35,450 nt of DNA from positions 1 through 35,450 of the forward strand of contig JAZALG010000105.1 in NCBI GenBank assembly GCA_036229545.1, read 5' to 3'. Numbering within the stretch: the first letter of the stretch is position 1; every line of letters starts with the position of its first letter. Below are positions 15,114 to 29,377 of this stretch, one piece after another. The translations under genes and the position numbers were made by a program. The notes under the pieces were generated by a model. It was given only the letters and a program-made list of their open reading frames with translations. It was not told the DNA's origin and did not search any database. Origin of the DNA: Planctomycetota bacterium (lineage in GTDB: Bacteria > Planctomycetota > B15-G4).

Positions 15114-16276
15114 TGGCCTCTTATCCCCTTTCCCTAACCGAAGAACAGGAGATGCTGCGGGACACCGTTAGGGCGTTTTCCGAAGACGTTCTTCTGCCCC
15201 AGGCGATTGAGATTGACCGGGAGCAGCGGTTCCCAGTCGAAACCTTCGCACAGATGGGAGAACTCGGCTTGCTTGGCCTGCCTGTTCCCGAGGAGTACGG
15301 GGGAGGGGGAGTTGATGCGGTATCCATCACGTTGGTCATTCAGGAGTTGGCCCGATGCTGTGGCTCGACGGCGTTGGGGCTCGCGGCGCACACGTCGCTT
15401 TGCATGTGGCCGATCTACCAGTTCGGTACCGAGGAACAACGGCAACGCTATTTGCCGGACCTCACCTCTGGAAAAAAACTGGGCGCCTTTGGTCTCACCG
15501 AACCCAACGCGGGGAGTGACGCAGGGGGCACCCTTACATCGGCTGTCAAAGATGGCGACGGCTGGCTGCTGAATGGCTCGAAGATCTTCATTACGAACGC
15601 GAATTACGCGGACGTCTTTGTTGTGACAGCGGTGACCGACAAGGAAAAGAAAACCCGGGGGGGCATCTCCTCGTTCATTGTGGAGCGGGGGTGGGATGGT
15701 TTCGAAGTGAACAAGGGCAGTGAGAAGCTCGGCATGCGGGGAAGCGATTGGGGCGAGTTATATTTTGCTGACTGTCGCCTGCCTAAAGAGAGCCTCCTCG
15801 GTGAAGAAGGGTTGGGCTTTGTGAATTTTATGGAGACTCTTGATGGCGGACGTATTGGAATCGGTGCTTTGGCTCTCGGGCTTGCCCTCGGTGCCTACGA
15901 GAGATCGCTGTCCTACTCCCAGGAACGAAAAGCCTTCGGAAAAGCACTTTCCGATAAGCAGGGAATCGCCTTCATGCTTGCCGACATGGCGACCCAAATC
16001 GAAGCGGCGCGGCACCTTATTCAACATGCGGCAAGGCTCAGAGATGAGGGCCAGCCGTTCACGACGGCGGCGGCCATGGCCAAACTTTTTGCTTCTGAGA
16101 TGGCGATGAAGGTGACCTTTGACGCGATCCAGATTCATGGAGGTTATGGATTTACGAACGAGTATCACGTGGAGCGCATGTACCGTGATGCGAAGTTGTG
16201 CACGATTGGAGAAGGTACGAGTGAAATTCAGCGGATGGTCATTGCACGGGACCGTCTCGACCAATCTCTTCGTTGA
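15113..16276 (+). CDS. Acyl-CoA dehydrogenase (second copy)
   Basis: FGLTEPNAGSDAG and YRDAKLCTIGEGTSEIQRMVIAR. ATG 15113 (track start TTG 15110). Confidence 0.9.
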   Translation: MASYPLSLTEEQEMLRDTVRAFSEDVLLPQAIEIDREQRFPVETFAQMGELGLLGLPVPEEYGGGGVDAVSITLVIQELARCCGSTALGLAAHTSLCMWPIYQFGTEEQRQRYLPDLTSGKKLGAFGLTEPNAGSDAGGTLTSAVKDGDGWLLNGSKIFITNANYADVFVVTAVTDKEKKTRGGISSFIVERGWDGFEVNKGSEKLGMRGSDWGELYFADCRLPKESLLGEEGLGFVNFMETLDGGRIGIGALALGLALGAYERSLSYSQERKAFGKALSDKQGIAFMLADMATQIEAARHLIQHAARLRDEGQPFTTAAAMAKLFASEMAMKVTFDAIQIHGGYGFTNEYHVERMYRDAKLCTIGEGTSEIQRMVIARDRLDQSLR

Positions 16277-16284
16277 GGATTGCC

Positions 16285-18489
16285 ATGTCAGCACAAGAGG
16301 ATGAACCCAAAGATTCCCTTTCACGTCTGGCTAGAGAGTCAGATGTTGAGTCCTTCGAGGCAGCGTGGCTTGAGGCCATTGATGGCAAAGAGCCGACCCC
16401 GGATCTTCTCGAGGCGTACCACGAACTTTCCGGAGAGAAGCGACACGTCGTGGGGCACTCTCTTCTCGAAGTATTGTTCGAGGCCTGCACCGAGCGGAAG
16501 GACGCAGAGGGAATCCTGGCGGTGGGGGCGGAGTTGCTGTCCTCAGCGAGCAGGGGAGATCTTGATCTGGAGCCGGCCCTTCGCGATGCCCTGGGAGAGC
16601 AGTTCGGGCAGGAAAGTTGGTATGCGAGTTTTTTGCGTCTTTCCGGATTGGAAGAAGAGTCGGCGCTTCAGGCGTCGCAGGGTGGGGGAATGCGTTCTTT
16701 TATAGAAGCTCTTGAGCAATTTGACGCGTTGAGGCGGTTTCTTCCTGGAAGCGTGGTCTACCACTCGAGTGGATGGAAAGAGGGCTTGGTGGTGGACTAT
16801 GACCCGACGTCTGAGCAGATCTCGATCCAGTTTCGCCAGGATGGCACCGTGCGGCAGATGCCCATTACGAGTGCCCTCGATGTTCTGACCACTCTCGCCG
16901 AAGATGATCTTCGCGCGCGCCTTCTCGTTGACGAGGAGGGGCTGAAAGAGGAAGCAGCCTCTTCTCCTAGTCTTCTTGTTCGTGCCGTCGCACGATTGCA
17001 TCGAGATCGAGCGACGGTCAAAGAGATGAAGTTGTGGCTTTATGGCACGGTAATCGAAGAGCGGTCTTGGAATAGTTGGTGGAAGAAGGCAAAGCAAGCA
17101 GGCCTCCAAGATCCATTTTTGGCGGTGGATAATCCAAGCCGCCCGGTTTTCGTACTCCGAAAGAAAGCTCTGACGGCAGAAGAAGAGATGGGTCTTGCCA
17201 TGGAGGGGGCGGCGAGTCTTGTCGAACTGCTGAAAGTGGTTGCAGGGCCCCTGTCTTTGGATCCCGAAGCGGACCTCAAAGGCAGGATCCTTTCAGCGGT
17301 GAAATCGGGGGTTGCTGATGAAGGAGAAACCTCAACAGAGAGGCTGGCAGGTGCCCTTCTCCTGCGGCGTCACGGGGAGTCGCAGGATGAGTTCATCGCA
17401 ACTCTGTTGGACGGGATGCTGGCTGAGGAGTCCGTCACGTTCGCGACGATTGTTTCCGCTCTGGGGAATCGAACGGAACGGCGAGACCTCTTTGAGGTTT
17501 ATGCGGCCGCCAAACCGGATCTTTGGAGTGATGGCATCATTGGCGAACTTGATGGACTGCCGACGGACCTTCTCGGTCTAGTCGCCGACCGCCTCACCCT
17601 GGAGGGAAGGGGCGCTGCCTTGGCGAATCGTTTCCGCATTTTTCTTCTGACTCCAAGCAGGTATGCAGACGCGGTTCTTGCCCTGTCTCGGCGTTTTGTC
17701 GCCGGGGACTTTTCTGAAATCGAAGGAGCCCCGGACTCCGTCAATGTGTGCCACGGGCTGCTGTGCATGGCAGAGACCCAGGCGCCTCGTGCGGAGCGGG
17801 GTGATAAAGAGGCAAAGGACGTCATGAAGGAGTTGGAGCGTCTCATCATCGAAAAGGGGCTCGCTTCTCAATTCGTGGAACAGGGATCGCAATCGGACCT
17901 AGAGTCGTCGCTTTCTGTGATGGCTCGCTGCGCTACGTTGCCGAGCGTCTTGGTGAACGCGGTTCGCGTTCCCATCGAGAAGAGGTGTCCAGACCTCATT
18001 CCTCGCAAGGAGATTCCCTTCTGGGAATCCGGCCCTCTGTTTACGAGCAAGGACGGAATGCTCCGTCGGCAAGAGGAGTACCGGGTGCTTCTTGAGGAGA
18101 AAATCCCAGAGAACAGCGCAGACATCGGTCGGGCTGCCTCCTACGGCGACCTGTCCGAGAATTTTGAGTGGACGGCTGCCATTGAACAGCAGAGGCAACT
18201 CACGGAGAAGGCCGCAGCCATGGAAGCTGAATTGAGGGTCGCCCAGTTGATCGAGGATCAGGAGTTAGTGGATGGCGTCGTGTCGCCGGGGATGGTTGTG
18301 ACCTACTCCACGGGGGGAGAAACCCACCAGATACGAATTTTTGGACCATGGGAGCGGGGGGAAGATGTCGTGAGTTATCAGGCTCCTTTGGCTGCTGGCA
18401 TGCTTGGAGGAAAGGAGGGTGATACTCTGGTCGTGGACCTTCCTTCGGGGTCGGTGGAGGTTACGGTGACGGCAGTGGTGCCGGCGTAG
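16285..18489 (+). CDS. Large GreA/GreB-family protein: roughly 580-aa unknown N-terminal region plus a complete C-terminal Gre module
   Basis: The last roughly 150 aa align by eye to GreA: ...IGRAASYGDLSENFEWTAAIEQQRQL... (acidic coiled-coil tip D-x-x-E retained), ...SPGMVVTY....IRIFGPWE....VSYQAPLAAGMLGGKEGD. ATG 16285 lies 9 nt after the upstream stop. Confidence 0.75.
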   Translation: MSAQEDEPKDSLSRLARESDVESFEAAWLEAIDGKEPTPDLLEAYHELSGEKRHVVGHSLLEVLFEACTERKDAEGILAVGAELLSSASRGDLDLEPALRDALGEQFGQESWYASFLRLSGLEEESALQASQGGGMRSFIEALEQFDALRRFLPGSVVYHSSGWKEGLVVDYDPTSEQISIQFRQDGTVRQMPITSALDVLTTLAEDDLRARLLVDEEGLKEEAASSPSLLVRAVARLHRDRATVKEMKLWLYGTVIEERSWNSWWKKAKQAGLQDPFLAVDNPSRPVFVLRKKALTAEEEMGLAMEGAASLVELLKVVAGPLSLDPEADLKGRILSAVKSGVADEGETSTERLAGALLLRRHGESQDEFIATLLDGMLAEESVTFATIVSALGNRTERRDLFEVYAAAKPDLWSDGIIGELDGLPTDLLGLVADRLTLEGRGAALANRFRIFLLTPSRYADAVLALSRRFVAGDFSEIEGAPDSVNVCHGLLCMAETQAPRAERGDKEAKDVMKELERLIIEKGLASQFVEQGSQSDLESSLSVMARCATLPSVLVNAVRVPIEKRCPDLIPRKEIPFWESGPLFTSKDGMLRRQEEYRVLLEEKIPENSADIGRAASYGDLSENFEWTAAIEQQRQLTEKAAAMEAELRVAQLIEDQELVDGVVSPGMVVTYSTGGETHQIRIFGPWERGEDVVSYQAPLAAGMLGGKEGDTLVVDLPSGSVEVTVTAVVPA

Positions 18490-18518: not shown

Positions 18519-20090
18519 GTGACTGTTTCTTCCGATGACGGTGACCACCTTGGACAAATCCCCTTAGGGGGGGATGAAGAGACTTCGCCACCGCGCTCTT
18601 CCGGTCCGTCGGACGAGGAGATTCGTGCTGCCGCCGCGATTGCTGGCGACTATCGCGCCTCGGTTCCTGGGACAGAGCCTGACCGTTCCCCCGCAGGGAA
18701 GGACGAGGGACGGGTGGCCGACCGCCCCTCAATGGATTTCTGGGAGGTTCTCTACGAACGGCGGACCACTCGGCGGTTTGACAAGAGTCGATCTGTCCCC
18801 CGGGACGTGGTCCTCGAACTTCTCGATGCTGCCGTCTTCTCTCCCACGAGTTGCAATCTCCAGATGTGGGACTTTCTCGTGGTGGACGACCCGGATCTGC
18901 GCGAGCAACTGGGACGGCTCTCTCTTCAAGTTCTCTCTACTCCCCTGACGATCTTTGTGACCTACGGCAAGGAATACAGTGAAGAGGGCTATGCCAACGT
19001 GCAGTCTGCCGCAGCGGCGATGATGAACATGTCCAATGCGGCGCACGTGCTGGGGATGGGAACCTTCTGGATCAACCAACTCGGCCCTCGGGATGAGGTG
19101 GGCCGTATTCTTGGGATTCCTTCTGATCGAGAGGTGATCTGCGCCTTGGCGGTGGGATGGCCTGAGGTTTATCCCACCAAAGCTCCGCGTCGCCGTCCCT
19201 TCGACCATGTCGTTCACTGGAATCGTTATGGAGGCGTGGCGATCCCAACCTCACCGTCTCCTCAGGATTGGTCCTTGGACCAAATCCGGGAATACCAGCA
19301 GGCCCGCGTCCTCAACGGAAACCGATACAACAAGACGCGCCCATGGGAAATGGCCGGCAACCTCACGGCCGGGGAGCGATTGAGTGCATTGGACGAGAAC
19401 GGATCTCCCGACGAGGGGAGTCCTCGGTGGCTCGATGTCCTCCCTGTGACGGGGTTGTTCACAGGGCCCTTGGCAAGGCAGCACCGAGGTCATCGGTGGA
19501 CCGTGCTTGAGTTGAGCGAAGACGTGGCGGCATTCGCCGCGAAGCGATGTCCGACCCAGGTGATGTGTGACACCCTTGTGTTTGACCCACAATCAGTCGA
19601 CGCGCTCCCCGAGGAGGTCTTCGACCGGATGACCCTCTTTCATCGCCTGGAGAGCCTGCCCGAGCAGACACGATCCCATCTCCTGGGCGCCCTCCATCGG
19701 ATGCTTGCTCCGGAGGGAAGATTTCTCCTGAAATATACGAGCCGTCGCAGTTTTCACGCGGTTGCCGCCTGGCTTCATCACCGACGAGGCGGCCCGGGGG
19801 GGGTTGAGTATGTGCTTTCGCCCGACCCCAATCTTGGCCCCTTCGAAGCCCTGTCCCCTTCCGAGGTCAAGGCGCTGGTGGAAGAGGCTGGATTCACCGT
19901 GGAGAGGTCCTTCGGAGACGCGAGGGGTCCGAGTCGCGAGGAGATGGAGTTCCGGACTCGGAATATGAGCCGATGGAAGAGTGGAATCGTGCGGATCGGA
20001 TTGGCCCTTTGGGGCGTCCTCCTGTGTTGCATCCCCGGAGCCTCACGATACTGGGCTCGAGACCGGGCTCTTTTGCTCCGGCGTGGCTGA
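18519..20090 (+). CDS. Nitroreductase-domain protein fused to a class I methyltransferase-like domain, with a C-terminal TM helix
   Basis: Nitroreductase N-terminus: FWEVLYERRTTRRFDKSRSVPRDVVLELLDAAVFSPTSCNLQMWDF. Methyltransferase-like part: WLDVLPVTGLFTG (degenerate glycine loop), VLELSEDV, LHRMLAPEGRFLLKY. TM segment: IVRIGLALWGVLLCCIPGA. The start is uncertain: GTG 18519 or ATG 18732. Confidence 0.7.
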   Translation: MTVSSDDGDHLGQIPLGGDEETSPPRSSGPSDEEIRAAAAIAGDYRASVPGTEPDRSPAGKDEGRVADRPSMDFWEVLYERRTTRRFDKSRSVPRDVVLELLDAAVFSPTSCNLQMWDFLVVDDPDLREQLGRLSLQVLSTPLTIFVTYGKEYSEEGYANVQSAAAAMMNMSNAAHVLGMGTFWINQLGPRDEVGRILGIPSDREVICALAVGWPEVYPTKAPRRRPFDHVVHWNRYGGVAIPTSPSPQDWSLDQIREYQQARVLNGNRYNKTRPWEMAGNLTAGERLSALDENGSPDEGSPRWLDVLPVTGLFTGPLARQHRGHRWTVLELSEDVAAFAAKRCPTQVMCDTLVFDPQSVDALPEEVFDRMTLFHRLESLPEQTRSHLLGALHRMLAPEGRFLLKYTSRRSFHAVAAWLHHRRGGPGGVEYVLSPDPNLGPFEALSPSEVKALVEEAGFTVERSFGDARGPSREEMEFRTRNMSRWKSGIVRIGLALWGVLLCCIPGASRYWARDRALLLRRG

Positions 20091-20111: not shown

Positions 20112-20963
20112 TTAGAAAGAGACGTCGAATTTCTTCATAAGGATGAACCCCACGGCCATCGAGACCACGAGAAACACGAGGATAATTCCCAGTTCACCGT
20201 CCGGCATCCATCCAAGGTCCCGTTCGGGATAGCCTCGAGAAAGAGATGCCGTAGAGAGTGCGGCACTAAAGATCGGTCCGCTGCTGGCGAGGGGGGCCTC
20301 GCCCGGGTAGAGGATGGCCTCCCAACTCTTGGTTCGGACCACAGGTACTTTTCGAGGCCCTCCACCGACGGCCCATCCCTTTTCGACGAGACTGCCGTTT
20401 ACGTTGATTTTCAAAAGATAGTCGCCGGGCTGGTCTGCCCGCAGTCTCCATGCCACCTCCCCGTCTGGAGTGGGGACTGGCCCGGCTTCGATCGTGACGC
20501 CTTCTGGCGTCTCGAGGGTGACTTCGGTTGCCGGTCGGTCGGTCATGGCACGGTCAAGTTGGACGGTCAGAATTGTAGAAACACCGGGGGGGCTGGGATC
20601 AAAGGCATAACGGGCCTCGAGTTGAGCCAGGAGGGCGATCATGGGCAGGATCATGACGGCCATGGGGAGGAGGTTGTTGGCGAGGTAGAGGGTGTTCTTC
20701 CAGAAGATCATCATCGTGGCGCCCATGACAGTCCGAATGTCGTCGCTGAAGAGTCGGATTTCATAGAGATGCACCTTGATCTGATTTTTTGTTCGGGCGA
20801 TCGCGGCCTGATTGCTGCAGTACTTGAAGCAGACCATGGCCACTAGGCCGAAGAGAGCCGACCAGAACAGGAGGGAAATCCAGACATGCCAGTTCAGTCC
20901 GCCCCCGAAGGGAGCAAGGAGCAGGTCGAAGATTGCCGTCGAGAGGTTGTTAAATGTCGCCAT
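20112..20963 (-). CDS. Membrane protein of unknown function (N-terminal TM helices, roughly 135-aa beta-rich loop, C-terminal TM helix)
   Basis: Hydrophobic segments WISLLFWSALFGLVAMVCF, LLPMAVMILPMIALLAQL and LGIILVFLVVSMAVGFILM. It is the last gene of the sat/cysC/NPP operon. Confidence 0.65.
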   Translation of the reverse strand: MATFNNLSTAIFDLLLAPFGGGLNWHVWISLLFWSALFGLVAMVCFKYCSNQAAIARTKNQIKVHLYEIRLFSDDIRTVMGATMMIFWKNTLYLANNLLPMAVMILPMIALLAQLEARYAFDPSPPGVSTILTVQLDRAMTDRPATEVTLETPEGVTIEAGPVPTPDGEVAWRLRADQPGDYLLKINVNGSLVEKGWAVGGGPRKVPVVRTKSWEAILYPGEAPLASSGPIFSAALSTASLSRGYPERDLGWMPDGELGIILVFLVVSMAVGFILMKKFDVSF

Positions 20964-21004: not shown

Positions 21005-21199
21005 TCAGCTGATGTAGCCGAGTCCTCGGAGTTTGTTCTTAATGTCCTCGTCGCTTTCGCTGCCTTCAAAATGCGCGAGTTCCTTCTCAAGAATGTGTGT
21101 GATGAACTCTTCGACGGTGGCATAGCCAGCGGTGTCGGAAACTTTCTTCAAACGAGTGACGAGGTCCTGGTCAAGCCTGACCTTGGTAGCGCCGAACAT
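21005..21199 (-). CDS. Ribbon-helix-helix (CopG/Arc/MetJ-like) protein, 64 aa, with a C-terminal ...IKNKLRGLGYIS tail
   Basis: Beta strand TKVRLDQD, helix LVTRLKKVSDTAG, G-Y-x-T turn, helix VEEFITHILEKEL. An AGGAGA Shine-Dalgarno (SD) sequence lies 7 nt upstream of the ATG. Paralogue of 28380..28622. Confidence 0.75.
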   Translation of the reverse strand: MFGATKVRLDQDLVTRLKKVSDTAGYATVEEFITHILEKELAHFEGSESDEDIKNKLRGLGYIS

Positions 21200-21264
21200 G
21201 TTGATTCTCCTAAAGGGTGTTGGGGATATGAAACGGTGTCATGAGGTTATCGGATGGGAGCGGC

Positions 21265-23277
21265 TCATTTCGAAAGGGGGATGGCTTTGCCGACCATTCC
21301 CTCCCCCTGGCCGAGCCCGTAAAGGTCCAGCAGCGTTGCTGTGAGGTCTGTGAGGTCAAAATCCGACCCGGTGATCTTACGATTGACGAGAAGGATCCCC
21401 GGCACGACGTCAGGGGCCATGAGGTGATTCCCTGACCACCTTGAGGTGTTGTCTTCGATGACCACTCCAGGGACGCCTCCGAGAGTCGAGAGGTCTGAAC
21501 AGCCGTATCCCGCGTCATAGCCGATGACAAGATCAGGAGATTCGCTTAGGCGCAGTCCGGAGTAGACCTCGTCTCGGGTCCAGGCCTGTTGAATGGCAGG
21601 AGCGTTGTGCTTCGGGTCTTGGTAGGACGTCAGTTTGCTGGCGATTTCTGCGAGGAGCGATGGAGATTGTTCGGGGGAGACAATCCCTTCGGATTCCCGG
21701 CCTCTTTGGTTCAGGTAAAGGCCGTTAAATCCCAGGGCATAGGCTCTGGTCTTCGACCAGTCGGTGTCGGTCAGGATGCTCCCCTCCGTTTTCCCGTCCC
21801 GGAGGACTAGATACCCCTCTTCGACCAGCCATGCGTTGAGATGAAAAGCCCTGCGATAGGGCTGGAATCCGTGATCGCTCATCACAATAAGGAGAGTATC
21901 GCTGGGGAGTTGATTCCTCACTGCACCGAGGACGGCATCAACCTCTTCATAGAAGTGCTGGATGTCGTCCCGATGGTGAAGTGCTGTTGCGGGTTCGTGG
22001 GCGGGATGTGGCGGTGCGGAGGAGTCCTTGGGATCACCATGTCTCCAGAGCATGTGGCACTGGAGGTCGATCTCGGAGAGGTAGAAGAAGGTGGCGTCGC
22101 CTCTTTCAAATCGATCAAGGGCGAGGTCGAGCATCTCTCGCCCGTCTTCGTGGACGAGGGCGACCTGGGCCAGATAGTCGTTGTCATCGAAGAGCCCGTC
22201 TTTAAGGGCGTTGGTTTCTTCCGGCATGCCCTGGGTATAGAAGTGCCCGATCTCTCCATGAAGGTCCTCGGCCCAGGTCTCAGGAGTTGTGATCAATTGG
22301 GCGGGGGCGGATGGGGCGATATTGACTGGTGAGGCGTAGAGGCGGAAGGTCGGCCTGACCTCTTTCATGTAAAAGCGGACCGTTCCGCTCAGAGGCATGA
22401 GGCCTCCCGGGGCCGCGTCAAAAACCACCTCAAGCCAGTCGCTCCATTCCCCCTCCTTGAGGATGGCTTGAGCGTCTCCACACCGGAGCCAGACTTCCTC
22501 CTTTTCTGGAGCGAGGTGAACTGTCAGGGGGACGGTGAGGTGGGGGGTCTTGCTCGGGAGGTTCTCGGGGTCGATCGCCAGAATATCCGGTGGGCCCTTG
22601 AGAACGTCGGTCACTGTGTCAGGGACCCCGTCTAAATCGGTGTCGTCGACGGTGATGAGAGCGAGGTCGGCTTTGATCTCGCGGGTATCGAGGATCGGTT
22701 CATTGGTCCACCAGGAGTAGGTGCCGAAGTCGCCCCGCATGTCCACCGTCCCCATGCCTGAGAGGGTGTAGGCGTCGGAGGGGGTGGGAGGGTAGTTCCC
22801 GGGCATGCGGTAGACTTCCGTCTCCACCCCGGCTTCGGTGAGGTAATCCCACCAGGGCGTTCCCGAACGGTTGTTTTCGGGCTCCTCTCCTCCGAGAGGG
22901 ATGTGATAGCCGAAGAAATTCAGAGCCCCTGGTGGCTCCTCTTTCATCGCCCGGGTTGCGGAAGAGATGGGTTGATAGCTGTGGGGGTCTCGATGGATAA
23001 AGTCGAAGACACCGTGTCCTCCGGGATTCATCCCGGTGACAAAGTTCGACCAGGCGACGGGGCTTTGTGGGGGGTTGGAGGTTCCTAAGGGTTGGAAACT
23101 TCCCTCGGTGACGAGGCGAGAGAAATGGGGCATACGTTCCTCGTCCATGAGGCGTTGCAGGATGACGGGGTCCATCCCGTCAATGCCGAGGACAAAGACC
23201 CCAGAGGGGCCGGCGTCTTCTTCGGCGGCGACAAAAGTGGTGAGGGCCCAAGCCAAGAGGAGGGGAATCAGTTTCAT
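21265..23277 (-). CDS. Secreted type I phosphodiesterase/nucleotide pyrophosphatase (NPP, alkaline-phosphatase superfamily) protein, 670 aa
   Basis: Signal peptide MKLIPLLLAWALTTFVAAEE, metal site LGIDGMDP, nucleophile region SPVAWSNFVTGMNPGGHG, VMSDHGF, WSGNH. Confidence 0.82.
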   Translation of the reverse strand: MKLIPLLLAWALTTFVAAEEDAGPSGVFVLGIDGMDPVILQRLMDEERMPHFSRLVTEGSFQPLGTSNPPQSPVAWSNFVTGMNPGGHGVFDFIHRDPHSYQPISSATRAMKEEPPGALNFFGYHIPLGGEEPENNRSGTPWWDYLTEAGVETEVYRMPGNYPPTPSDAYTLSGMGTVDMRGDFGTYSWWTNEPILDTREIKADLALITVDDTDLDGVPDTVTDVLKGPPDILAIDPENLPSKTPHLTVPLTVHLAPEKEEVWLRCGDAQAILKEGEWSDWLEVVFDAAPGGLMPLSGTVRFYMKEVRPTFRLYASPVNIAPSAPAQLITTPETWAEDLHGEIGHFYTQGMPEETNALKDGLFDDNDYLAQVALVHEDGREMLDLALDRFERGDATFFYLSEIDLQCHMLWRHGDPKDSSAPPHPAHEPATALHHRDDIQHFYEEVDAVLGAVRNQLPSDTLLIVMSDHGFQPYRRAFHLNAWLVEEGYLVLRDGKTEGSILTDTDWSKTRAYALGFNGLYLNQRGRESEGIVSPEQSPSLLAEIASKLTSYQDPKHNAPAIQQAWTRDEVYSGLRLSESPDLVIGYDAGYGCSDLSTLGGVPGVVIEDNTSRWSGNHLMAPDVVPGILLVNRKITGSDFDLTDLTATLLDLYGLGQGEGMVGKAIPLSK

Positions 23278-25490
23278 GATTTTTTCCCCTTGTTGGCGGA
23301 GGACACCAGGGCTTCGGGCGCGGCGCCAGATTGACTCAGAATCGCAGGGTCAAAATTGCCACGGACGAGATCCTCTCCACCATTTTCGGAGAAGAAGGAG
23401 GCGCCCTGCATGTATTTGGGGATGTCCTGTCCGAAGGTGTGCAGGACGGAGGGAGCCATGTCGACCAGGCTGGGAGTTTCTCGGGCGATTGGACGGTTGC
23501 AGAGGAGGACTCCGGGAACGATGCGCGGATCCACGCAGTGATCTCCGCTCCAACTTCGAGTGTTGTCTGTGAAGGTGTCCTCTGTCACCGATCCGGTGGC
23601 ACATTCCCAACTGTTGCGATACCCACCGTCGTATCCGATGAGGAGGTCTGGCGCGTCGTACTTATAGGGACCGGTGAAGAAGTCTTCGGCGGCGAAGACA
23701 TCCAAGACGGCCTCCTGCCCTGTGGCCGGGTCTTTCATCTTTTTCAGTCCAACGATGAGTTCCTCCTTGAGGGCGTTGTACTCGTCGCCTTCGGTCACGA
23801 TCCCTGAGACTTCTCGACCCTTGCGGTTGATGAAAATGCCCGTGAGTCCGAGGCTGAAAGCCCTGGTCTTGGACCAGTCCACGTCTTCGAACCAATCGCC
23901 GGACGTGGTCTTTCCATCCTTCAAGACGAGGTAGCCCTCGTCCCTCAGCCACGCATTGAGATTTACGCCACGTCGAAAGTTGGTGAAGCCATGGTCGGAG
24001 ATGATCATGAAGAGGGTATGAGGGTCTTCGACCACGTCATCCCAGATCTCGCCCAGCAGTCCATCCATCCGCTCGTAAACCTGTGGGATCGCGTCCTTCC
24101 ACTCTTCGGTGTCCTTGCCTTCGTTCGCGGGGTGGGTGGGATCGAGATACCGGTAGAACATGTGCTGGACACGGTCCGTGGTGTCGAAGACACAGGTCAC
24201 CAGGCCCTTGCGTGTTTTGGAGAGGGCGTCTTTGAACATGGCGACCCGCTCGTCAGCGATGAGCATGGCTTGCTCAAAGAAGGCTTTTTCATCAATCACA
24301 CGCTCATTGAGAGCCCAGGTGTCTTCTGCCAGTCCTAGGGTGGCGAATTTCCCCAACTTCTTTGCCAGATAGACCGAATAGGCCGTGGGATGGCTGATGG
24401 GCATCGCGGGGTTTTCGGGATCGATGTGAATCGGCGTCATGTAGACGGAAACTTCGGGCTCAAGGGAGGTGATATAGAAGCGAGCGATGCCCCGCACCTT
24501 GATGCCGAGTCCGGCTTTGAAGGTGAGATCAATCCAATCGGAGTATTCGCCCACTTCCAGGGTGAAGGGGTCGGCACCCTCAATCGCGAAATGGGCCGAA
24601 GAACTGGTCTCGTTCACAGTGAGGGTGAAAGGAATCGTGAGGGAGGTTCCGTCGCTCACCAGGGAGTTTTGAGGGCCCATGATCCGGGAGCGGATGACGT
24701 TTCCCTGTCGGCGGAGGACGGTCTGTTCTCCCCCTGTGAAGGCCGCTTCGCCTCCCTCTCCTTGTCGGGTGCTGAAGAAGCCAAAGGTGCCCTGACTTCC
24801 CCTCAGGTCAGGGACGCACATTCCCGAGAGGAGGAGGCCTTTGAACTTGACGGGGGGGAAGGTGATCGGCACACGCTGAATGGTGGAGAAGATGTTCTTT
24901 GCCCCGAGAAGTTTCCAGAAGGCCTGACTCTTCTGGAGGAGCTTGATGGTGGGCTTTTCTAGAGGGATGACGTATTTGCCGATATTCAGAACTTTCTTTG
25001 CATTGCCAATGTCGGTCGACGAGAGCATGGGCATGTAGGTGCAGGGGTCTCGCGTTAGAAAGTCGTAGATGCTGTGACGGGAGGGATCCACTCCGGTACT
25101 GAAGGAGGACCACGCCACAGGCGACATCGAGGGGTAACTCGTCGCAAGAGGTCGGAAGACACCCCGCTCGGCCAAGCGTTGAAAATTCGGGAGCCGGCCT
25201 TCTTGCATGAACTTTTGAACGAGGCCGGGGTCGAGGCCGTCCAGGCCTAGGATGACGACCTTTTTGGCGCGGGCGTTTTTGTAGGGGTTCCCTGTGATGA
25301 TCAGTCGCCAGAGGAGTCGGAGAGGCCACAGGAGAATGGTCCCGAAGGCCAGGAAGACTGTGCTGACGAGGACGAGAGCTGATCCGGCGAAGGCGAAGCC
25401 TGCGCCTGGCCCGATGTAGGCGTGTGCGTCTGGTCCTGAGAAGAGGACCCAGGTCAAGAGCAGCGCGGTGATTCGGATCGAGCGAGTCAT
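23274..25490 (-). CDS. Membrane-anchored NPP/alkaline-phosphatase-superfamily protein, 738 aa (paralogue of the downstream gene)
   Basis: Two N-terminal hydrophobic segments including AYIGPGAGFAFAGSALVLVSTVFLAF, then LGLDGLDP, SPVAWSSFSTGVDPSRHS, IISDHGF, WSGDH. Its stop overlaps the next gene's start by 4 nt. Confidence 0.82.
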   Translation of the reverse strand: MTRSIRITALLLTWVLFSGPDAHAYIGPGAGFAFAGSALVLVSTVFLAFGTILLWPLRLLWRLIITGNPYKNARAKKVVILGLDGLDPGLVQKFMQEGRLPNFQRLAERGVFRPLATSYPSMSPVAWSSFSTGVDPSRHSIYDFLTRDPCTYMPMLSSTDIGNAKKVLNIGKYVIPLEKPTIKLLQKSQAFWKLLGAKNIFSTIQRVPITFPPVKFKGLLLSGMCVPDLRGSQGTFGFFSTRQGEGGEAAFTGGEQTVLRRQGNVIRSRIMGPQNSLVSDGTSLTIPFTLTVNETSSSAHFAIEGADPFTLEVGEYSDWIDLTFKAGLGIKVRGIARFYITSLEPEVSVYMTPIHIDPENPAMPISHPTAYSVYLAKKLGKFATLGLAEDTWALNERVIDEKAFFEQAMLIADERVAMFKDALSKTRKGLVTCVFDTTDRVQHMFYRYLDPTHPANEGKDTEEWKDAIPQVYERMDGLLGEIWDDVVEDPHTLFMIISDHGFTNFRRGVNLNAWLRDEGYLVLKDGKTTSGDWFEDVDWSKTRAFSLGLTGIFINRKGREVSGIVTEGDEYNALKEELIVGLKKMKDPATGQEAVLDVFAAEDFFTGPYKYDAPDLLIGYDGGYRNSWECATGSVTEDTFTDNTRSWSGDHCVDPRIVPGVLLCNRPIARETPSLVDMAPSVLHTFGQDIPKYMQGASFFSENGGEDLVRGNFDPAILSQSGAAPEALVSSANKGKKS

Positions 25491-25516
25491 GGCAGGGACG
25501 CTGTGAGAGAAGGTGT

Positions 25517-26128
25517 TTAGACGAAATTCCGAGCCTTAAGCCTCTCTAGGATCATCACTTCTTGCTCCGGTTCAATATCTGGTCCTCCCGCAGGTGGGAT
25601 CCAGCCTTTGATTTCCAAGAAACGGATGATCGTGTCGACACTCTCTTCGATTGATTCTGTCTCAGAGTTGACGTGGACTTCGGGGTTTTCAGGCGCCTCA
25701 TAGGGATCATCAACCCCCGTGAACCCTTTGATTTCTCCCGCGAGCGCTTTTTTGTACAGGCCTTTGACGTCTCGTTCGGTGAGGACATCGAGGGAGCACT
25801 CGGTGTAAACCTCCACGAAGTTGTCGTTGTGAAGGTGGCGGATTTCGTCGCGAATGTCCTGGTAGGGAGAAATGGCGGCCGCGATGCACACGGTGTTGTT
25901 GCGCGCGAGAAGGTTGGCCACGAAACCGATGCGTCGGATATTGATGTCTCGATCTTCTTTGCTGAAACCCAGGCCCTTGCTGAGGTTGGTGCGGACGACA
26001 TCTCCGTCAAGCATTTCAACGCCGAGTCCACGCCGAAGCAATACGCGTTCAATCTTCTTGGCGAGGGTGGTTTTGCCCGAGCCAGAGAGGCCGGTGAACC
26101 AAAGGGTGAATCCTTTTTGAGAGGTCAT
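25517..26128 (-). CDS. cysC: Adenylyl-sulfate (APS) kinase with a roughly 25-aa C-terminal extension
   Basis: [19 protein letters not shown]-loop, [29 protein letters not shown] prefer ATG 26128 (MTSQKGF...) over the track start at 26245. The tail is [26 protein letters not shown]. Confidence 0.92.
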
Positions 26129-26183
26129 GATGGACGTCCTTATTTTATGGGGAGGGGAAGGAAGAGGGAGGGAGCAGAGATCT

Positions 26184-27149
26184 CTAGCGGATCTTGCCTT
26201 CCATGAAGGGCACCTCCATGACCTTGTCATGGAGGATGGGGCCATGTCCGAAGTAGCCTTTCTCGCCGAAGAGTTCGCCGTGATCGGCTGTCACGGTGAT
26301 GTAGGTGTTCTCCGGAACGAGGTCATACAACTTGGGAAACACTTCTTCGTCTAGGTAGCGCACGGTGTGAATCTGCATTTCACGAAGCCGGTCGAGTTTT
26401 TCCTGGTCGAAGAACTTGGGAGCGTCTTTGTCCTTGATGAGTTTTCCCCCTTTGAGGCTTTTATCGAGGTGCTTGAAGACGCCGTGGACGCCACTAATCC
26501 GGGGCCATTCACTGGGGTCCTGGTCGGGCGTGACAAAGGGGTAATGGGTTTCGCCGACATTCAGCATGTAGAAGGAAGGACGGTCGTCGTCGAATGTCAG
26601 CGTGTCCAGGATGGCCGCCATGTCGTTGTGCTTGTCCATGAGTTGGAAGGAGTCAAATCCTCGGTTGACCCCTGTCGTGCTGTTGAGGACGGGGAGGGAC
26701 ACCCTCGCATGGGTTTTGTACCCGAGTTCTTCTCGCAGGAAGTCCGGGAGCCACATGGCAGGGACGAGTTTTGCGAAATCCATCCCTTCCATGCCGAAAC
26801 GTTCGTTGTAGTTCAGGAAATCTTCTTTGTAGTACTCCGAGGCGAAGACGTTGTCAGGGCTTTCGTGGGGGAGGAGTCCCGTCAGGAGGTTGTAATGGCT
26901 CGGCGCGGTCCAGGTGGCGTAGCTGTAACGCTTCTGGACCTTTCCGCCGCTGAGTTTGGGGATGTTCTTGGGCTTTGCGGCCATGAACGAGTCGTATCGA
27001 CATGAATCGAGGGTGATGACGATGTAGTTGTTCTTTGCCTTCGGTTCGGGGCGGGAGACTTCGACTGCTGCTGTGCTCGGCGCTGTCGGCGCGGCGACGT
27101 TGCGAGGTGGTGGCCGGAAGTTCTTCAGGATGCTGTCTAAAAGGGCCAT
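26184..27149 (-). CDS. Short cytosolic NPP/sulfatase-like alkaline-phosphatase-superfamily protein, 321 aa
   Basis: [13 protein letters not shown] (metal Asp), [17 protein letters not shown] (resembles the NPP Thr-nucleophile motif TFPNHYxxxTG), [18 protein letters not shown]. It has no signal peptide and no sulfatase C/S-x-P-x-R motif. Confidence 0.75.
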
Positions 27150-27185
27150 GTCAGTCGTCCTTCCAGTGGAGAGAGAGAACCGTGT

Positions 27186-28340
27186 CTAAACCGCTGTTTT
27201 GTCCGCCATCGCGTCGATGAGAATGTCTGCCACCTCGGGGCGAGTGAACTCCTCTGGCGGGCGTTCTCCTTTTTGGAGCATGTCCCGCAGGGCTGTGCCG
27301 GACAGGAAGATCTTGTCGCTGCCTTCTGTCGCGGCCGCTGTCTTGTCGCTCGCCATGGCACCTGCCTTGAGATCCCAGAAGGCGTGTTCAAAGTTCATGA
27401 TCGAGATCCCGATTTCCTCTGGAGAGAAGTCATTGAAGATCTCTTGTGCGTCGTAGGTTCCGTAGTAGTCGCCCACGCCCGCGTGATCGCGACCGACGAT
27501 GATGTGGGTGCAGCCGTAGTTCTTTCGGATCAGGGCGTGAAAAATTGCTTCGCGGGGCCCTGCGTACCGCATGGCTTGAGGGTAGACGGCGAGGACGACC
27601 CGATCCTTGGGGTAGTACTTGTCGAGAAGGGCGGTGTAACAATCCATGCGGACTGACGCGGGGATGTCGTCGCTCTTGGTTTCACCCACGAGAGGGTGGA
27701 TGAGAAGGCCGTCCACGAGTTCGAGGGCGCACTTGGTCAGATACTCGTGGGCCCGGTGGATGGGATTGCGAGTTTGGAAGGCCACGACGGTCTCCCATCC
27801 CTTGGCCTTGAACAGAACGCGCGTTTCTTGTGGCGTGAGACGTTGGTCATTGGCGAAGTCATATTCGGGCATGTTGAGAATCCAAATCGGCCCGGCGAGG
27901 TACTCGTCGCCAATGGAGTTGAGGTACTGAACCCCAGGATGCGCTTCGTCGGTTGTCCCGAGGCAGCGGCGGGCTTCCTCCTGTTTGTCAAAACTGTATT
28001 TTTCTTGGAGGTGGAGGAGCCCGATGAGGTTGTCCTTCTCATCGGTCAGGGCGATGTCTGTTCCGACGGAACAGTCGAGCCCCTTGTTGCTCAGGGTGAC
28101 GGGGAGAGGCCAGACGACTCCGCTGGCAAGACGAGTGCTTTTGATCACCGATCCGAGGTCGTAACTTCCCATGAAGCCGTCGAGGGGGCTCATGGCGCCT
28201 GTGCCGATCATTTCAAGATCACTGAGTTCTCGAGCATTGAGAGGGAGTCTGGGGGCTGACTCTACTTTTGCGATGAGTGCATCGCGCTCGTCGCCGGTCG
28301 CGATGCGGTTTACCAGTCGTCCACCATGTGCAGGAATCAT
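27186..28340 (-). CDS. sat: Sulfate adenylyltransferase (ATP sulfurylase, homo-oligomeric type)
   Basis: FQTRNPIHRAHEYL and IVGRDHAGVGDYYG signatures. 384 aa. Confidence 0.93.
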   Translation of the reverse strand: MIPAHGGRLVNRIATGDERDALIAKVESAPRLPLNARELSDLEMIGTGAMSPLDGFMGSYDLGSVIKSTRLASGVVWPLPVTLSNKGLDCSVGTDIALTDEKDNLIGLLHLQEKYSFDKQEEARRCLGTTDEAHPGVQYLNSIGDEYLAGPIWILNMPEYDFANDQRLTPQETRVLFKAKGWETVVAFQTRNPIHRAHEYLTKCALELVDGLLIHPLVGETKSDDIPASVRMDCYTALLDKYYPKDRVVLAVYPQAMRYAGPREAIFHALIRKNYGCTHIIVGRDHAGVGDYYGTYDAQEIFNDFSPEEIGISIMNFEHAFWDLKAGAMASDKTAAATEGSDKIFLSGTALRDMLQKGERPPEEFTRPEVADILIDAMADKTAV

Positions 28341-28379
28341 GACTTCTCCGAATGATTGAATAGAGAGGGGTGTGGAGGG

Positions 28380-28622
28380 TTACTTCAGGTATCCCAGGCC
28401 GTCGAGCTTCCGCTTGATCTCGGACAACTCTTCTTTTGTGACAGCGGAGGTTGCTCCCTGGTCTGGGTCTTCCTTCCCAAGGGGGCGATCTCCGACGAGG
28501 TCTCTGAGGACAAAGACGATGAAGTCGGTAGGAGAGGTGAACCCTGAGTCATCGATAACCTGCTGAATCCTCTCGTAGAGGGGGCGAGGAATCTTCAAGG
28601 TGACCTTCTTATGCCGTGTCAT
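28380..28622 (-). CDS. Ribbon-helix-helix protein, 80 aa, with a C-terminal ...IKRKLDGLGYLK tail. First gene of the sat operon.
   Basis: Beta strand KKVTLKIP, helix LYERIQQVIDDSG, G-F-x-S turn, helix PTDFIVFVLRDL. An AAGGA SD lies 8 nt upstream of the ATG. Confidence 0.75.
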   Translation of the reverse strand: MTRHKKVTLKIPRPLYERIQQVIDDSGFTSPTDFIVFVLRDLVGDRPLGKEDPDQGATSAVTKEELSEIKRKLDGLGYLK

Positions 28623-28704
28623 GTGTTGTTCCTTTGAGCGCCCAACAGAGGGGAAGAATGTCCCGTTTCTTGGTGGGCTGTTAGTAGCATGTATACCTAA
28701 AGTT

Positions 28705-28729
28705 ACTCCTATAGCACTCCAATAGGAGT
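28705..28729. promoter_or_regulatory. Candidate operator in the divergent RHH-sat / lipoprotein control region
   Basis: Inverted repeat ACTCCTAT (28705-28712), 9-nt spacer, ATAGGAGT (28722-28729). It also reads as a tandem 11-mer, ACTCCTATAGC / ACTCCAATAGG. RHH proteins typically bind such repeats. By rough odds, about 0.1 such 8-bp inverted repeats are expected by chance in this spacer. Confidence 0.3.
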
Positions 28730-28876
28730 GTGTTTAGAGCGCAGTAGCATACAGCCGTGTTTTCTTACCGCAAGCCAGGATTGAGAAGAAGAGATGGAAT
28801 TCGGCGTTTTTTTCTCTAAATCGGGTAAAAAGGGGCACCGGAATTGGATCAAACCCAGAAAAAAGAGGACAGAAGC

Positions 28877-29377
28877 ATGACATCACGATCGTTGATGACC
28901 CTTTTCTTTTCGTGCGTCGCCCTCTTTTCCTGCGGCGAACCAGGCTTGAATGAGATCAAAGAGGGGGTCAAAACGTCGCTGAGTACGAGTTCTTTCGCCC
29001 AAGCTCGTGCTGATTGTGAGTCTGTCTTGACTCACAATAAAGCTGCGATGAGCAGGGCGGACCGGTGGGCGTTTGAAGACCTTCGGCTGCAGGCCGTTGC
29101 TCGATCAGGCGATGGAGCGGAGTCTGTTGCAACGCTTGGTCGGTTAGCGGGGGAATACGCGAGCCAAATCACGCCGGCCTACTACGTGAAGATCACGAGC
29201 TATGTTCGGGATGGAGGAGACCTTTTGGGCGCAGTCGACCTCCTCGCCGCGGGCGCAGAGCGATTTCCTGCGGACAAAAGCAAGTTCGATGCGCTCGCCG
29301 AGGCCCTCAAAGAAGCCGCCTCAAGTGCTGGCGACAGTGAAGCTCTCGAGAAACTCAAATCTCTGGGCTACGTTTGA
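28877..29377 (+). CDS. Helical (TPR-like) lipoprotein, 166 aa, ending ...ALEKLKSLGYV
   Basis: Signal/lipobox MTSRSLMTLFFSCVALFSC|GEP. A GAGGA SD lies 7 nt upstream of ATG 28877 (track start TTG 28844). It is transcribed divergently from the RHH-sat operon. Confidence 0.7.
   Translation: MTSRSLMTLFFSCVALFSCGEPGLNEIKEGVKTSLSTSSFAQARADCESVLTHNKAAMSRADRWAFEDLRLQAVARSGDGAESVATLGRLAGEYASQITPAYYVKITSYVRDGGDLLGAVDLLAAGAERFPADKSKFDALAEALKEAASSAGDSEALEKLKSLGYV

Follow-up and report, generated by a model that had tools for sequence, protein, structure and literature searches.

A contig of 35,450 nucleotides from a Planctomycetota bacterium (GTDB lineage Bacteria; Planctomycetota; B15-G4; GenBank assembly GCA_036229545.1, contig JAZALG010000105.1), analyzed over its full length and referred to below as the window, carries a gene cluster that encodes two ribbon-helix-helix (RHH) proteins, two NPP enzymes, the adenosine 5′-phosphosulfate (APS) kinase CysC, the ATP sulfurylase Sat and a lipoprotein (Table 1). 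Sat and CysC together form the pair that makes 3′-phosphoadenosine 5′-phosphosulfate (PAPS). The subject of this analysis is a short peptide, the LGY tail, with which several of these proteins end. The sequence-only reading of this DNA had placed the tail at the extreme C-termini of four proteins, and all four positions were confirmed. It had also called the four proteins otherwise unrelated; however, RHH-80 and RHH-64 are paralogues (BLASTP E = 3e-7 over the RHH domain and the tail) with the same layout of RHH domain, acidic linker and tail. The carriers in the window therefore represent three unrelated families, not four.

Table 1. Genes and tail peptides of the cluster, with positions in the window
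Feature	Position	Strand	Description
283-aa protein	20112-20963	minus	Membrane protein with three transmembrane (TM) helices and a beta-rich Ig-like loop; no tail; faint Filamin match
RHH-64	21005-21199	minus	RHH, acidic linker and LGY tail; weak NikR/DUF7557 matches
RHH-64, C-terminal peptide	21008-21061	minus	SESDEDIKNKLRGLGYIS, then stop
RHH-64, tail	21008-21043	minus	IKNKLRGLGYIS
NPP-670	21265-23277	minus	Exported paralogue of NPP-738; candidate periplasmic tail receptor; Pfam Phosphodiest
NPP-738	23274-25490	minus	Membrane-anchored enzyme of the NPP/alkaline-phosphatase superfamily; candidate tail receptor; Pfam Phosphodiest
CysC	25517-26128	minus	APS kinase; start taken at M40 of a 242-aa open reading frame (ORF); Pfam APS_kinase, residues 44-193
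CysC, C-terminal peptide	25520-25567	minus	16 residues, variant tail
CysC, tail	25520-25555	minus	12-residue variant tail; with the linker it forms a C-terminal extension of ∼28 aa
321-aa protein	26184-27149	minus	Cytoplasmic sulfatase-like protein (alkaline-phosphatase superfamily); no tail; Pfam Sulfatase, E = 4.8e-10
Sat	27186-28340	minus	ATP sulfurylase; no tail; Pfam PUA_2 and ATP-sulfurylase; NCBIfam NF003166 above cut-off
RHH-80	28380-28622	minus	Paralogue of RHH-64 (BLASTP) with longer linker and LGY tail
RHH-80, C-terminal peptide	28383-28433	minus	EELSEIKRKLDGLGYLK, then stop
RHH-80, tail	28383-28418	minus	IKRKLDGLGYLK
Lipoprotein	28844-29377	plus	All-helical, TPR-like, with LGY tail; divergent from the minus-strand row
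Lipoprotein, C-terminal peptide	29333-29374	plus	DSEALEKLKSLGYV, then stop
Lipoprotein, tail	29345-29374	plus	LEKLKSLGYV

The strict pattern [KR]LxxLGY[ILV] occurred three times in the six-frame translation of the window (∼70,900 residues), each time 0-1 residue before the stop codon of a plausible gene (RHH-64, RHH-80 and the lipoprotein). Shuffling the window 300 times gave a mean of 0.013 strict matches, none of them near a stop. The tails of RHH-64 and RHH-80 use differing codons at five of their eight identical residues, with a DNA identity of 21/36, and are therefore no recent DNA copy; the earlier claim that the match is kept at the protein level thus holds. When the window was combined with 95 loci surrounding RHH genes (designated below by L and a number), 108 strict matches were found among 3.14 million six-frame residues, and 105 of them were situated at most three residues from a stop. 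The internal matches, three in all, come from sulfatase-LGY-TPR lipoproteins of L077, where they occupy the linker, and from a beta-propeller lipoprotein of L053, where the motif stands at the N-terminus of the mature protein; the L053 protein looks arylsulfotransferase-like by eye.

This survey of RHH neighborhoods was used instead of a database-wide census with a tail-only profile. The profile (A1), built with three CysC tails and without sulfatase or arylsulfotransferase-like tails, gave self-scores of just 32-42 bits; at database size, canonical CysC tails scored E values of ∼7-30, and sulfatase and arylsulfotransferase-like tails with E values of at least 2e4. Scans of the tails against Pfam, NCBIfam and the PDB returned only sub-threshold matches to generic helices, and no relevant paper emerged from literature searches on the peptide strings and on this combination of genes.

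The consensus of the tail consists of a [DE]-rich linker followed by Φ-x-x-[KR]-L-x-x-L-G-Y-[ILV], with 0-4 residues before the C-terminus. The position of the Gly tolerates G, N, H, D, S and Q in CysC relatives. These residues favor helix C-caps, and the module can therefore be described as an amphipathic helix closed by a C-cap and followed by an aromatic-aliphatic anchor. In structural models, the tail is predicted to be a tethered amphipathic helix of 11-12 residues following a flexible acidic or Pro-rich linker.

The two RHH proteins reach the threshold of no Pfam or NCBIfam model. Their fold, an N-terminal beta-strand followed by two helices as in the CopG/Arc/MetJ regulators, was recognized by profile or by structure: hidden Markov models of NikR, CdrS and RHH_1/RHH_4 gave sub-threshold matches, and the AlphaFold2 (AF2) model of RHH-64 contains helices at residues 11-24 and 29-44 (the RHH core) and a tail helix at residues 50-60, followed by G-Y-I-S. 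With this model, Foldseek retrieved the RHH domains of NikR, omega and Arc as best matches (NikR at a probability of 0.96-0.97, with E values that are weak for so small a fold). Although RHH-64 and RHH-80 share the strand-helix-helix core of such regulators (the N-terminal domain of NikR, CdrS), they end in the LGY tail in place of a ligand- or toxin-binding C-terminal part, belong to no curated family and, in the case of RHH-64, are encoded by a fixed internal gene of an enzyme operon.

When searched exhaustively by profile (E ≤ 1e-3), this RHH family yielded 1060 representative clusters (50% identity), and the motif stands at the end of 124 among the best 150 of the 1060 representatives. Relatives of RHH-64 with 65-97% identity end in KL[RK]GLGY[IL]S in 118 of 120 cases. 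Orthologues of RHH-80 with the tail were found in eight loci (L002, L011, L080, L092, L148, L164, L176 and L177), where the C-termini read R[KR]KL[EHKR]NLGYL. In an alignment of 73 diverse members the sole invariant columns are L, L, G and Y of the tail, which is therefore better conserved than the DNA-binding fold. On sequence evidence, the RHH-plus-tail proteins are a large family without annotation, tied to one operon.

Some members of the family have an unusual architecture. P0154 (95 aa) has a complete Rad23-like UBA domain (Pfam UBA, E = 3.7e-9) as a continuation of the tail and ends in poly-Gly; the join lies exactly at the LGY/LGF position, and the protein is probably chimeric or derived from a low-quality assembly. 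P0236 (107 aa, RHH-80-type) contains two LGY modules in tandem (...RKRLRGLGYLPDED...KKRLKDLGYI, then stop). The RHH-plus-tail unit forms the C-terminus of longer predicted proteins in P0246 (817 aa), P0147 (571 aa) and P0148 (323 aa); in P0246 an NPP (Phosphodiest) domain reads in frame into the RHH, which may represent a real fusion or a lost stop codon. An 817-aa NPP-RHH fusion ORF in L009 was rejected, as it is merely an open alternative frame.

CysC is an APS kinase by curated thresholds (PF01583, E = 5.6e-64; NF002059, 264.6 bits against a cut-off of 244), and its tail lies outside the kinase domain according to both the Pfam bounds and the AF2 model. In that model a confident kinase fold with its native last helix (residues 160-173) is followed by a linker (174-186) with a predicted local distance difference test score (pLDDT) of ∼63 and by a tail helix (187-199) with a pLDDT of ∼84. 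The tail reads ERLKARNFV in the window. This weaker tail is a true variant of the motif: the extensions of its relatives grade continuously from RLKSLNFID and RLKALHFID to the canonical RLKDLGYI and RLQALGYL (Myxococcales, Acidobacteria). Approximately 116 of the 120 closest relatives carry the extension I..[KR]L[KR].L.[FY][ILV], ∼16 of them with the canonical LGY[IL]; canonical tails are also found on CysC in L080, L092 and L176. In L006, L014, L148 and L164 CysC stops directly after the kinase fold. The extension in the window resembles a repeat of the kinase's own last helix (native helix, linker, similar 11-residue segment), and in ordinary APS kinases of Acidobacteriota (L019, L024, L051, L076 and others) the native last helix ends LHLEKLGYIGA, immediately before the stop.

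Translation of the lipoprotein probably starts at the ATG at position 28877, which would give the signal peptide MTSRSLMTLFFSCVALFS directly before the lipobox Cys. In a set of 5.8 billion proteins it has only one distant relative, P0122 (37% identity), which retains the lipobox and the tail (IERLKSLGYL) and adjoins a homologue of the 321-aa protein. Orthologues with the tail were identified in L002, L011 (two copies), L148, L164 and L177. Tails are thus kept in orthologues of all four carriers.

All stop-to-stop ORFs of the RHH loci were scanned for further carriers. Besides the RHH genes and a few short, evidently non-coding ORFs (matching a looser pattern), the motif was confined to sulfate-related proteins. 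Lipoproteins of ∼470, 550 and 820 aa with a sulfatase domain (Pfam Sulfatase) end in ...ELQRLRSLGYVR, ...LKSLGYIE and similar peptides; they occur in L040, L065, L073, L078, L080, L087, L088, L103, L110, L154 and L172, often as tandem pairs just downstream of the operon. An arylsulfotransferase-like protein with the tail is encoded in L061 (Pfam Arylsulfotrans), TPR-like lipoproteins with the tail were found by the ORF scan in L148 and L164, and the native C-terminus of a CysD encoded next to the operon in L114 (1462-2304) reads MMQKLRSLGYM, in agreement with the LGY consensus. The motif is present in 20 of the 28 sulfatase-like ORFs of all loci, at the C-terminus in 14 and in the linker before a TPR domain in six. 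The peptide is therefore a mobile module that is not bound to a single fold. Further linker copies are present in L102, L105, L110, L118 and L167. The suggestion in the sequence-only reading that LxxLGY peptides may occur at the ends or in linkers of sulfatase-family proteins was confirmed: such proteins were seen in Acidobacteriota, Gemmatimonadota, a metagenome-assembled genome (MAG) labeled Gammaproteobacteria and metagenome contigs.

The residue preceding LGY varies with the carrier: exported proteins mostly have SLGY or ALGY, while RHH-64 has GLGY and RHH-80 has NLGY. Two related receptors would be consistent with this split, which is no proof of them. As a separate observation, the sulfatase-LGY-TPR lipoproteins of L077 (10196-15528), L102 (2147-4432), L105 (1217-3268) and L167 (1583-3535) share a conserved DPKD 15-20 residues after LGY, at the start of the TPR part.

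The distribution of the operon was examined by a GTDB genome scan with the alignment of one RHH sub-family, which returned 80 loci, and by a metagenome scan with that of a divergent sub-family, which returned 80 further loci. The closest relatives of the window cluster are Planctomycetota MAGs, and the syntenic clusters in L002, L011/L012 and L177 retain all four tails. The GTDB loci belong to Acidobacteriota (Thermoanaerobaculia, Vicinamibacteria, Holophagae), Myxococcota, Gemmatimonadota and two MAGs labeled Gammaproteobacteria. In each of the 80 genome loci the RHH gene has the NPP gene(s) on one side and a homologue of the 283-aa membrane protein on the other, and the same order was seen in every metagenome locus with enough flanking sequence except L144; the membrane protein gene lies directly downstream of the RHH gene in essentially every locus that reaches that far. 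L144 (Ga0335397_10042640) is the sole locus without an NPP homologue, within the 3.4 kb upstream of its RHH-membrane protein pair.

Sat and CysC were found at most 10 kb from the RHH gene in roughly a quarter of the genome loci. The Myxococcales locus L176 (GCA_012517325.1, 7129-10603) contains only RHH-80 (with the tail), Sat, a 460-aa cytoplasmic NPP without a signal peptide and CysC (with the tail); RHH-64 and the 283-aa membrane protein are missing from this sub-module, which is also present at ∼2.2-5.8 kb in L080 and L092. With an NPP and without the membrane protein, L176 leaves the NPP-family protein as the only neighbor common to all contexts.

The two NPP paralogues of the window differ at their N-termini. 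In NPP-738-like proteins a signal-like segment is followed by AYIGPGAG, by a TM helix and by a basic stretch, and from this arrangement (positive-inside rule) the catalytic domain is predicted to be cytoplasmic. NPP-670-like proteins begin with a signal peptide (window) or a lipobox (Acidobacteriota). The paralogues would then lie across the membrane from each other, in keeping with the two classes of carriers. All NPP-738-like proteins contain a near-invariant A-x-A-Y-[IV]-G-P-G-A-G (window 25398-25421, residues 24-31 of NPP-738; same position in the orthologues of L002-L095). The stop of NPP-738 and the start of NPP-670 overlap by four bases (23274-23277), as in L002, L004 and L006, which suggests translational coupling. 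The L-x3-G-Y core noticed earlier inside the NPP enzymes was rejected as a copy of the tail; it belongs to a distinct family-wide motif of the catalytic domain, LNxWLxxxGYLxL, which directly follows the DHG metal-ligand motif in 163 NPP ORFs.

The 321-aa protein holds a conserved position in L002, L011, L148, L164 and L177 and lies between Sat and CysC in Planctomycetota-type clusters. It has no signal peptide, a low-complexity N-terminus and a weak match to the STM4013/SEN3800 family; we take its 11-residue segment with an L-x3-G-Y core to be the usual helix-GY-strand element of sulfatases. The cluster is flanked by genes for a nitroreductase-methyltransferase fusion (18519-20090) and a 738-aa protein with C-terminal GreA/GreB domains (16273-18489), both of which recur beside it in the Planctomycetota loci L002, L009 and L011.

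Encapsulin cargo-loading peptides and microcompartment encapsulation peptides had been cited as precedents for the tail. The tail resembles them: in those systems a short terminal peptide after a poorly conserved linker is shared by unrelated, functionally linked proteins, and the terminal amphipathic helix behind a linker that characterizes the microcompartment peptides was seen in the AF2 models of CysC and RHH-64. However, encapsulin cargo-loading peptides follow a Gly-rich consensus of the LxxGIGSL type, unlike [KR]LxxLGY[ILV], half of the LGY carriers are exported lipoproteins, and LGY copies also occur in internal linkers. No bacterial microcompartment shell genes (PF00936/PF03319) were present in the gene lists of the loci examined, and no encapsulin shell gene (HK97-fold, Linocin_M18) was detected with Pfam among the called genes of L002-L015, L176 and L177 or the ORFs of the window. 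With shell genes absent and half of the carriers exported, the tail is no member of either system.

The nearest natural analogue in sulfate metabolism is the conserved C-terminus of CysD, the small subunit of ATP sulfurylase and likewise a sulfate-activation enzyme. The Pseudomonas protein (PDB 1ZUN_A) ends SMEEKKRQGYF, where G-Y-aromatic closes a basic helix that comes after acidic residues, and the LGY tail may have evolved from such a CysD end or be analogous to it in function. In CysD, however, the tail is native and family-wide, whereas the window has the unrelated homo-oligomeric Sat and neither CysD nor CysN. A literature search found no role for the CysD C-terminus and no description of its contacts in the CysD-CysN complex.

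UBA-like domains (the hHR23A UBA, RuvA domain III) offer a further parallel. The tail profile matches EKEAIERLKALGF, with which the hHR23A UBA opens (E = 0.16, not significant); the pattern there is acidic, I, x, x, L, x, x, L, G, aromatic. A complete UBA domain is a three-helix bundle of ∼40 residues; the tails hold helix 1 and the loop only, because the proteins end 0-4 residues later, and Pfam UBA gave no match to them. The C-terminal tip of SSB, a short hydrophobic peptide that docks proteins from the end of a flexible acidic linker, has the same layout as the tail, but its sequence is unrelated, and it is one carrier with many partners rather than many carriers with the same tail.

Other known types of terminal signal were rejected. 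PDZ-type or degron recognition would need a fixed register to the free carboxylate, while here 0-4 residues follow the motif and internal and N-terminal copies exist. C-terminal sorting signals (PEP-CTERM, LPXTG and the C-terminal domain of the type IX secretion system) would have a signature motif with a TM helix and a basic cluster behind it, or a beta-sandwich domain of ∼80 aa; they do not apply, as the proteins end right after the motif and NCBIfam, which includes models of these signals, gave no match. Sulfation of the tail Tyr, considered as the cluster makes PAPS, was dismissed as a general explanation, since Phe replaces Tyr in most CysC tails.

The earlier proposal of a docking or assembly peptide is supported in part: the tail is a module selected at the protein level, conserved across phyla and joined through flexible linkers to carriers that are structurally unrelated but functionally linked. 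We infer further that it binds another protein, and we tentatively favor the view, to which we give a little less than an even chance, that the tail is a portable docking peptide for NPP-like enzymes. It would recruit the proteins of one sulfate-activation/sulfate-ester system to a common type of receptor, the NPP-like enzymes of the alkaline-phosphatase superfamily encoded beside the carriers. A cytoplasm-facing receptor (NPP-738-like or the soluble 460-aa form) would serve RHH-64, RHH-80 and CysC, and an exported one (NPP-670-like) the TPR-like lipoprotein, the sulfatases and the arylsulfotransferase-like protein. Docking of CysC would bring PAPS synthesis to an NPP-like enzyme, and docking of the RHH proteins would couple transcription of the operon to occupancy of the docking sites.

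The NPPs are put forward as the likely receptor because they are the only neighbors present in every context; this is guilt by association, and Sat, the 283-aa protein or contacts between tails are other candidates. That one carrier has a lipoprotein signal peptide while the others look cytoplasmic had been noted as a puzzle. The puzzle is real, and the answer suggested here, that receptors on both membrane faces would explain the same peptide on cytoplasmic and exported carriers, derives from the predicted opposite-facing NPP paralogues. A bolder extension, which we consider unlikely, would make LGY the address tag of an envelope-spanning sulfation/sulfate-ester machine composed of the paired NPPs and the three-TM protein. 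The tag would bring in the PAPS kinase on the cytoplasmic side and the sulfatases or the arylsulfotransferase on the periplasmic side, and free docking sites would sequester the RHH regulators, so that transcription of the operon would follow the degree to which the machine is loaded.

Several observations weigh against a docking peptide for NPP-like enzymes. The succession of helix, Gly cap, aromatic and aliphatic residue is a common element, known from the last helix of APS kinase, the C-terminus of CysD, the start of UBA domains and sulfatase/NPP folds, and some of the similarity could therefore be convergent. The tail could also pack back on its own domain, with which the pLDDT of ∼80 for the tail helix in monomer models is compatible. 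The motif census covered the neighborhoods of the RHH gene. CysC lacks the tail in the fully syntenic loci L148 and L164, and in Planctomycetota the CysC tails have drifted to NF, HF or QF while the RHH tails stay GY, which is unexpected for one shared site. Carried to its end, the ubiquity of the pattern (UBA, APS kinase, CysD, sulfatase core) would mean that the tails arose by chance or generic structural convergence and have no shared function. We regard this as very improbable given three strict matches in the window against 0.013 expected, the terminal position of 105 of the 108 strict matches, the retention of the tail at 37% identity in the lipoprotein and across phyla in the RHH family, and its restriction to sulfate-related proteins in the loci.

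Three further explanations grant the tail a function. It might bind other LGY tails or its own carrier, as a capping, oligomerizing or autoinhibitory helix. RHH proteins, APS kinases and sulfatases are normally oligomers; no receptor would be needed and the two-compartment puzzle would be solved. The AF2 monomers give a tail helix (pLDDT ∼80) and not disorder, the CysC tail resembles the kinase's own last helix, and P0236 has two tandem tails. We nevertheless think self-association rather unlikely: it leaves unexplained why the tail recurs on unrelated folds only around the NPP-RHH operon, the linkers are long, variable and of low confidence, and the fact that L, G, L, G and Y hardly vary among RHH proteins of different phyla suggests a single fixed binding surface rather than family-specific packing. 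A membrane-targeting amphipathic helix, comparable to the C-terminal anchors of MinD, FtsA and PBP5, would keep the carriers at one or the other membrane face, beside the membrane-bound NPP and the 283-aa protein. The hydrophobic positions of the tail are spaced i, i+4 and i+7 with Lys/Arg between them, such a helix would work on either side of the membrane, and the core operon is itself membrane-bound; yet helices of this kind conserve composition rather than sequence, in contrast to the near-invariant L-G-Y, the tail helix is short with a strongly acidic segment ahead of it, a lipid anchor is already present on many carriers, and copies also occur in the inter-domain linkers of sulfatase-TPR proteins, all of which renders this idea distinctly doubtful. 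Recognition by a general machine (a protease, a chaperone, a modifying enzyme or a secretion system) in place of the neighboring enzymes seems similarly improbable. The C-terminal place and a conserved Tyr near acidic residues speak for it, and a PAPS-making cluster recalls Tyr sulfation, but the Phe of most Planctomycetota CysC tails means that modification of the Tyr hydroxyl is not essential, and the 0-4 residues to the free C-terminus and the internal and N-terminal copies argue against carboxylate recognition. Moreover, the tails have no TM-plus-basic sorting signal, the carriers reside in two compartments, and the gene lists of the loci contain no conserved gene for a protease, a chaperone or secretion.

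Encapsulins and microcompartments provide well-known cases of short docking peptides common to an entire pathway. To our knowledge such peptides are rare elsewhere in bacteria, and we know of none that is used on both sides of the membrane. The LGY motif ties a very widespread, unannotated operon of NPP, NPP, RHH and membrane protein genes, found in at least four phyla, to PAPS synthesis and to many "sulfatase-like" and "sulfatase-TPR" lipoproteins without a known role. It offers a handle for annotation, as a new motif or family model, and for the genome-wide finding of members of the system, as well as for experiments in Acidobacteriota and Planctomycetota, lineages abundant in soils and the sea in which the biology of sulfate esters is little understood.

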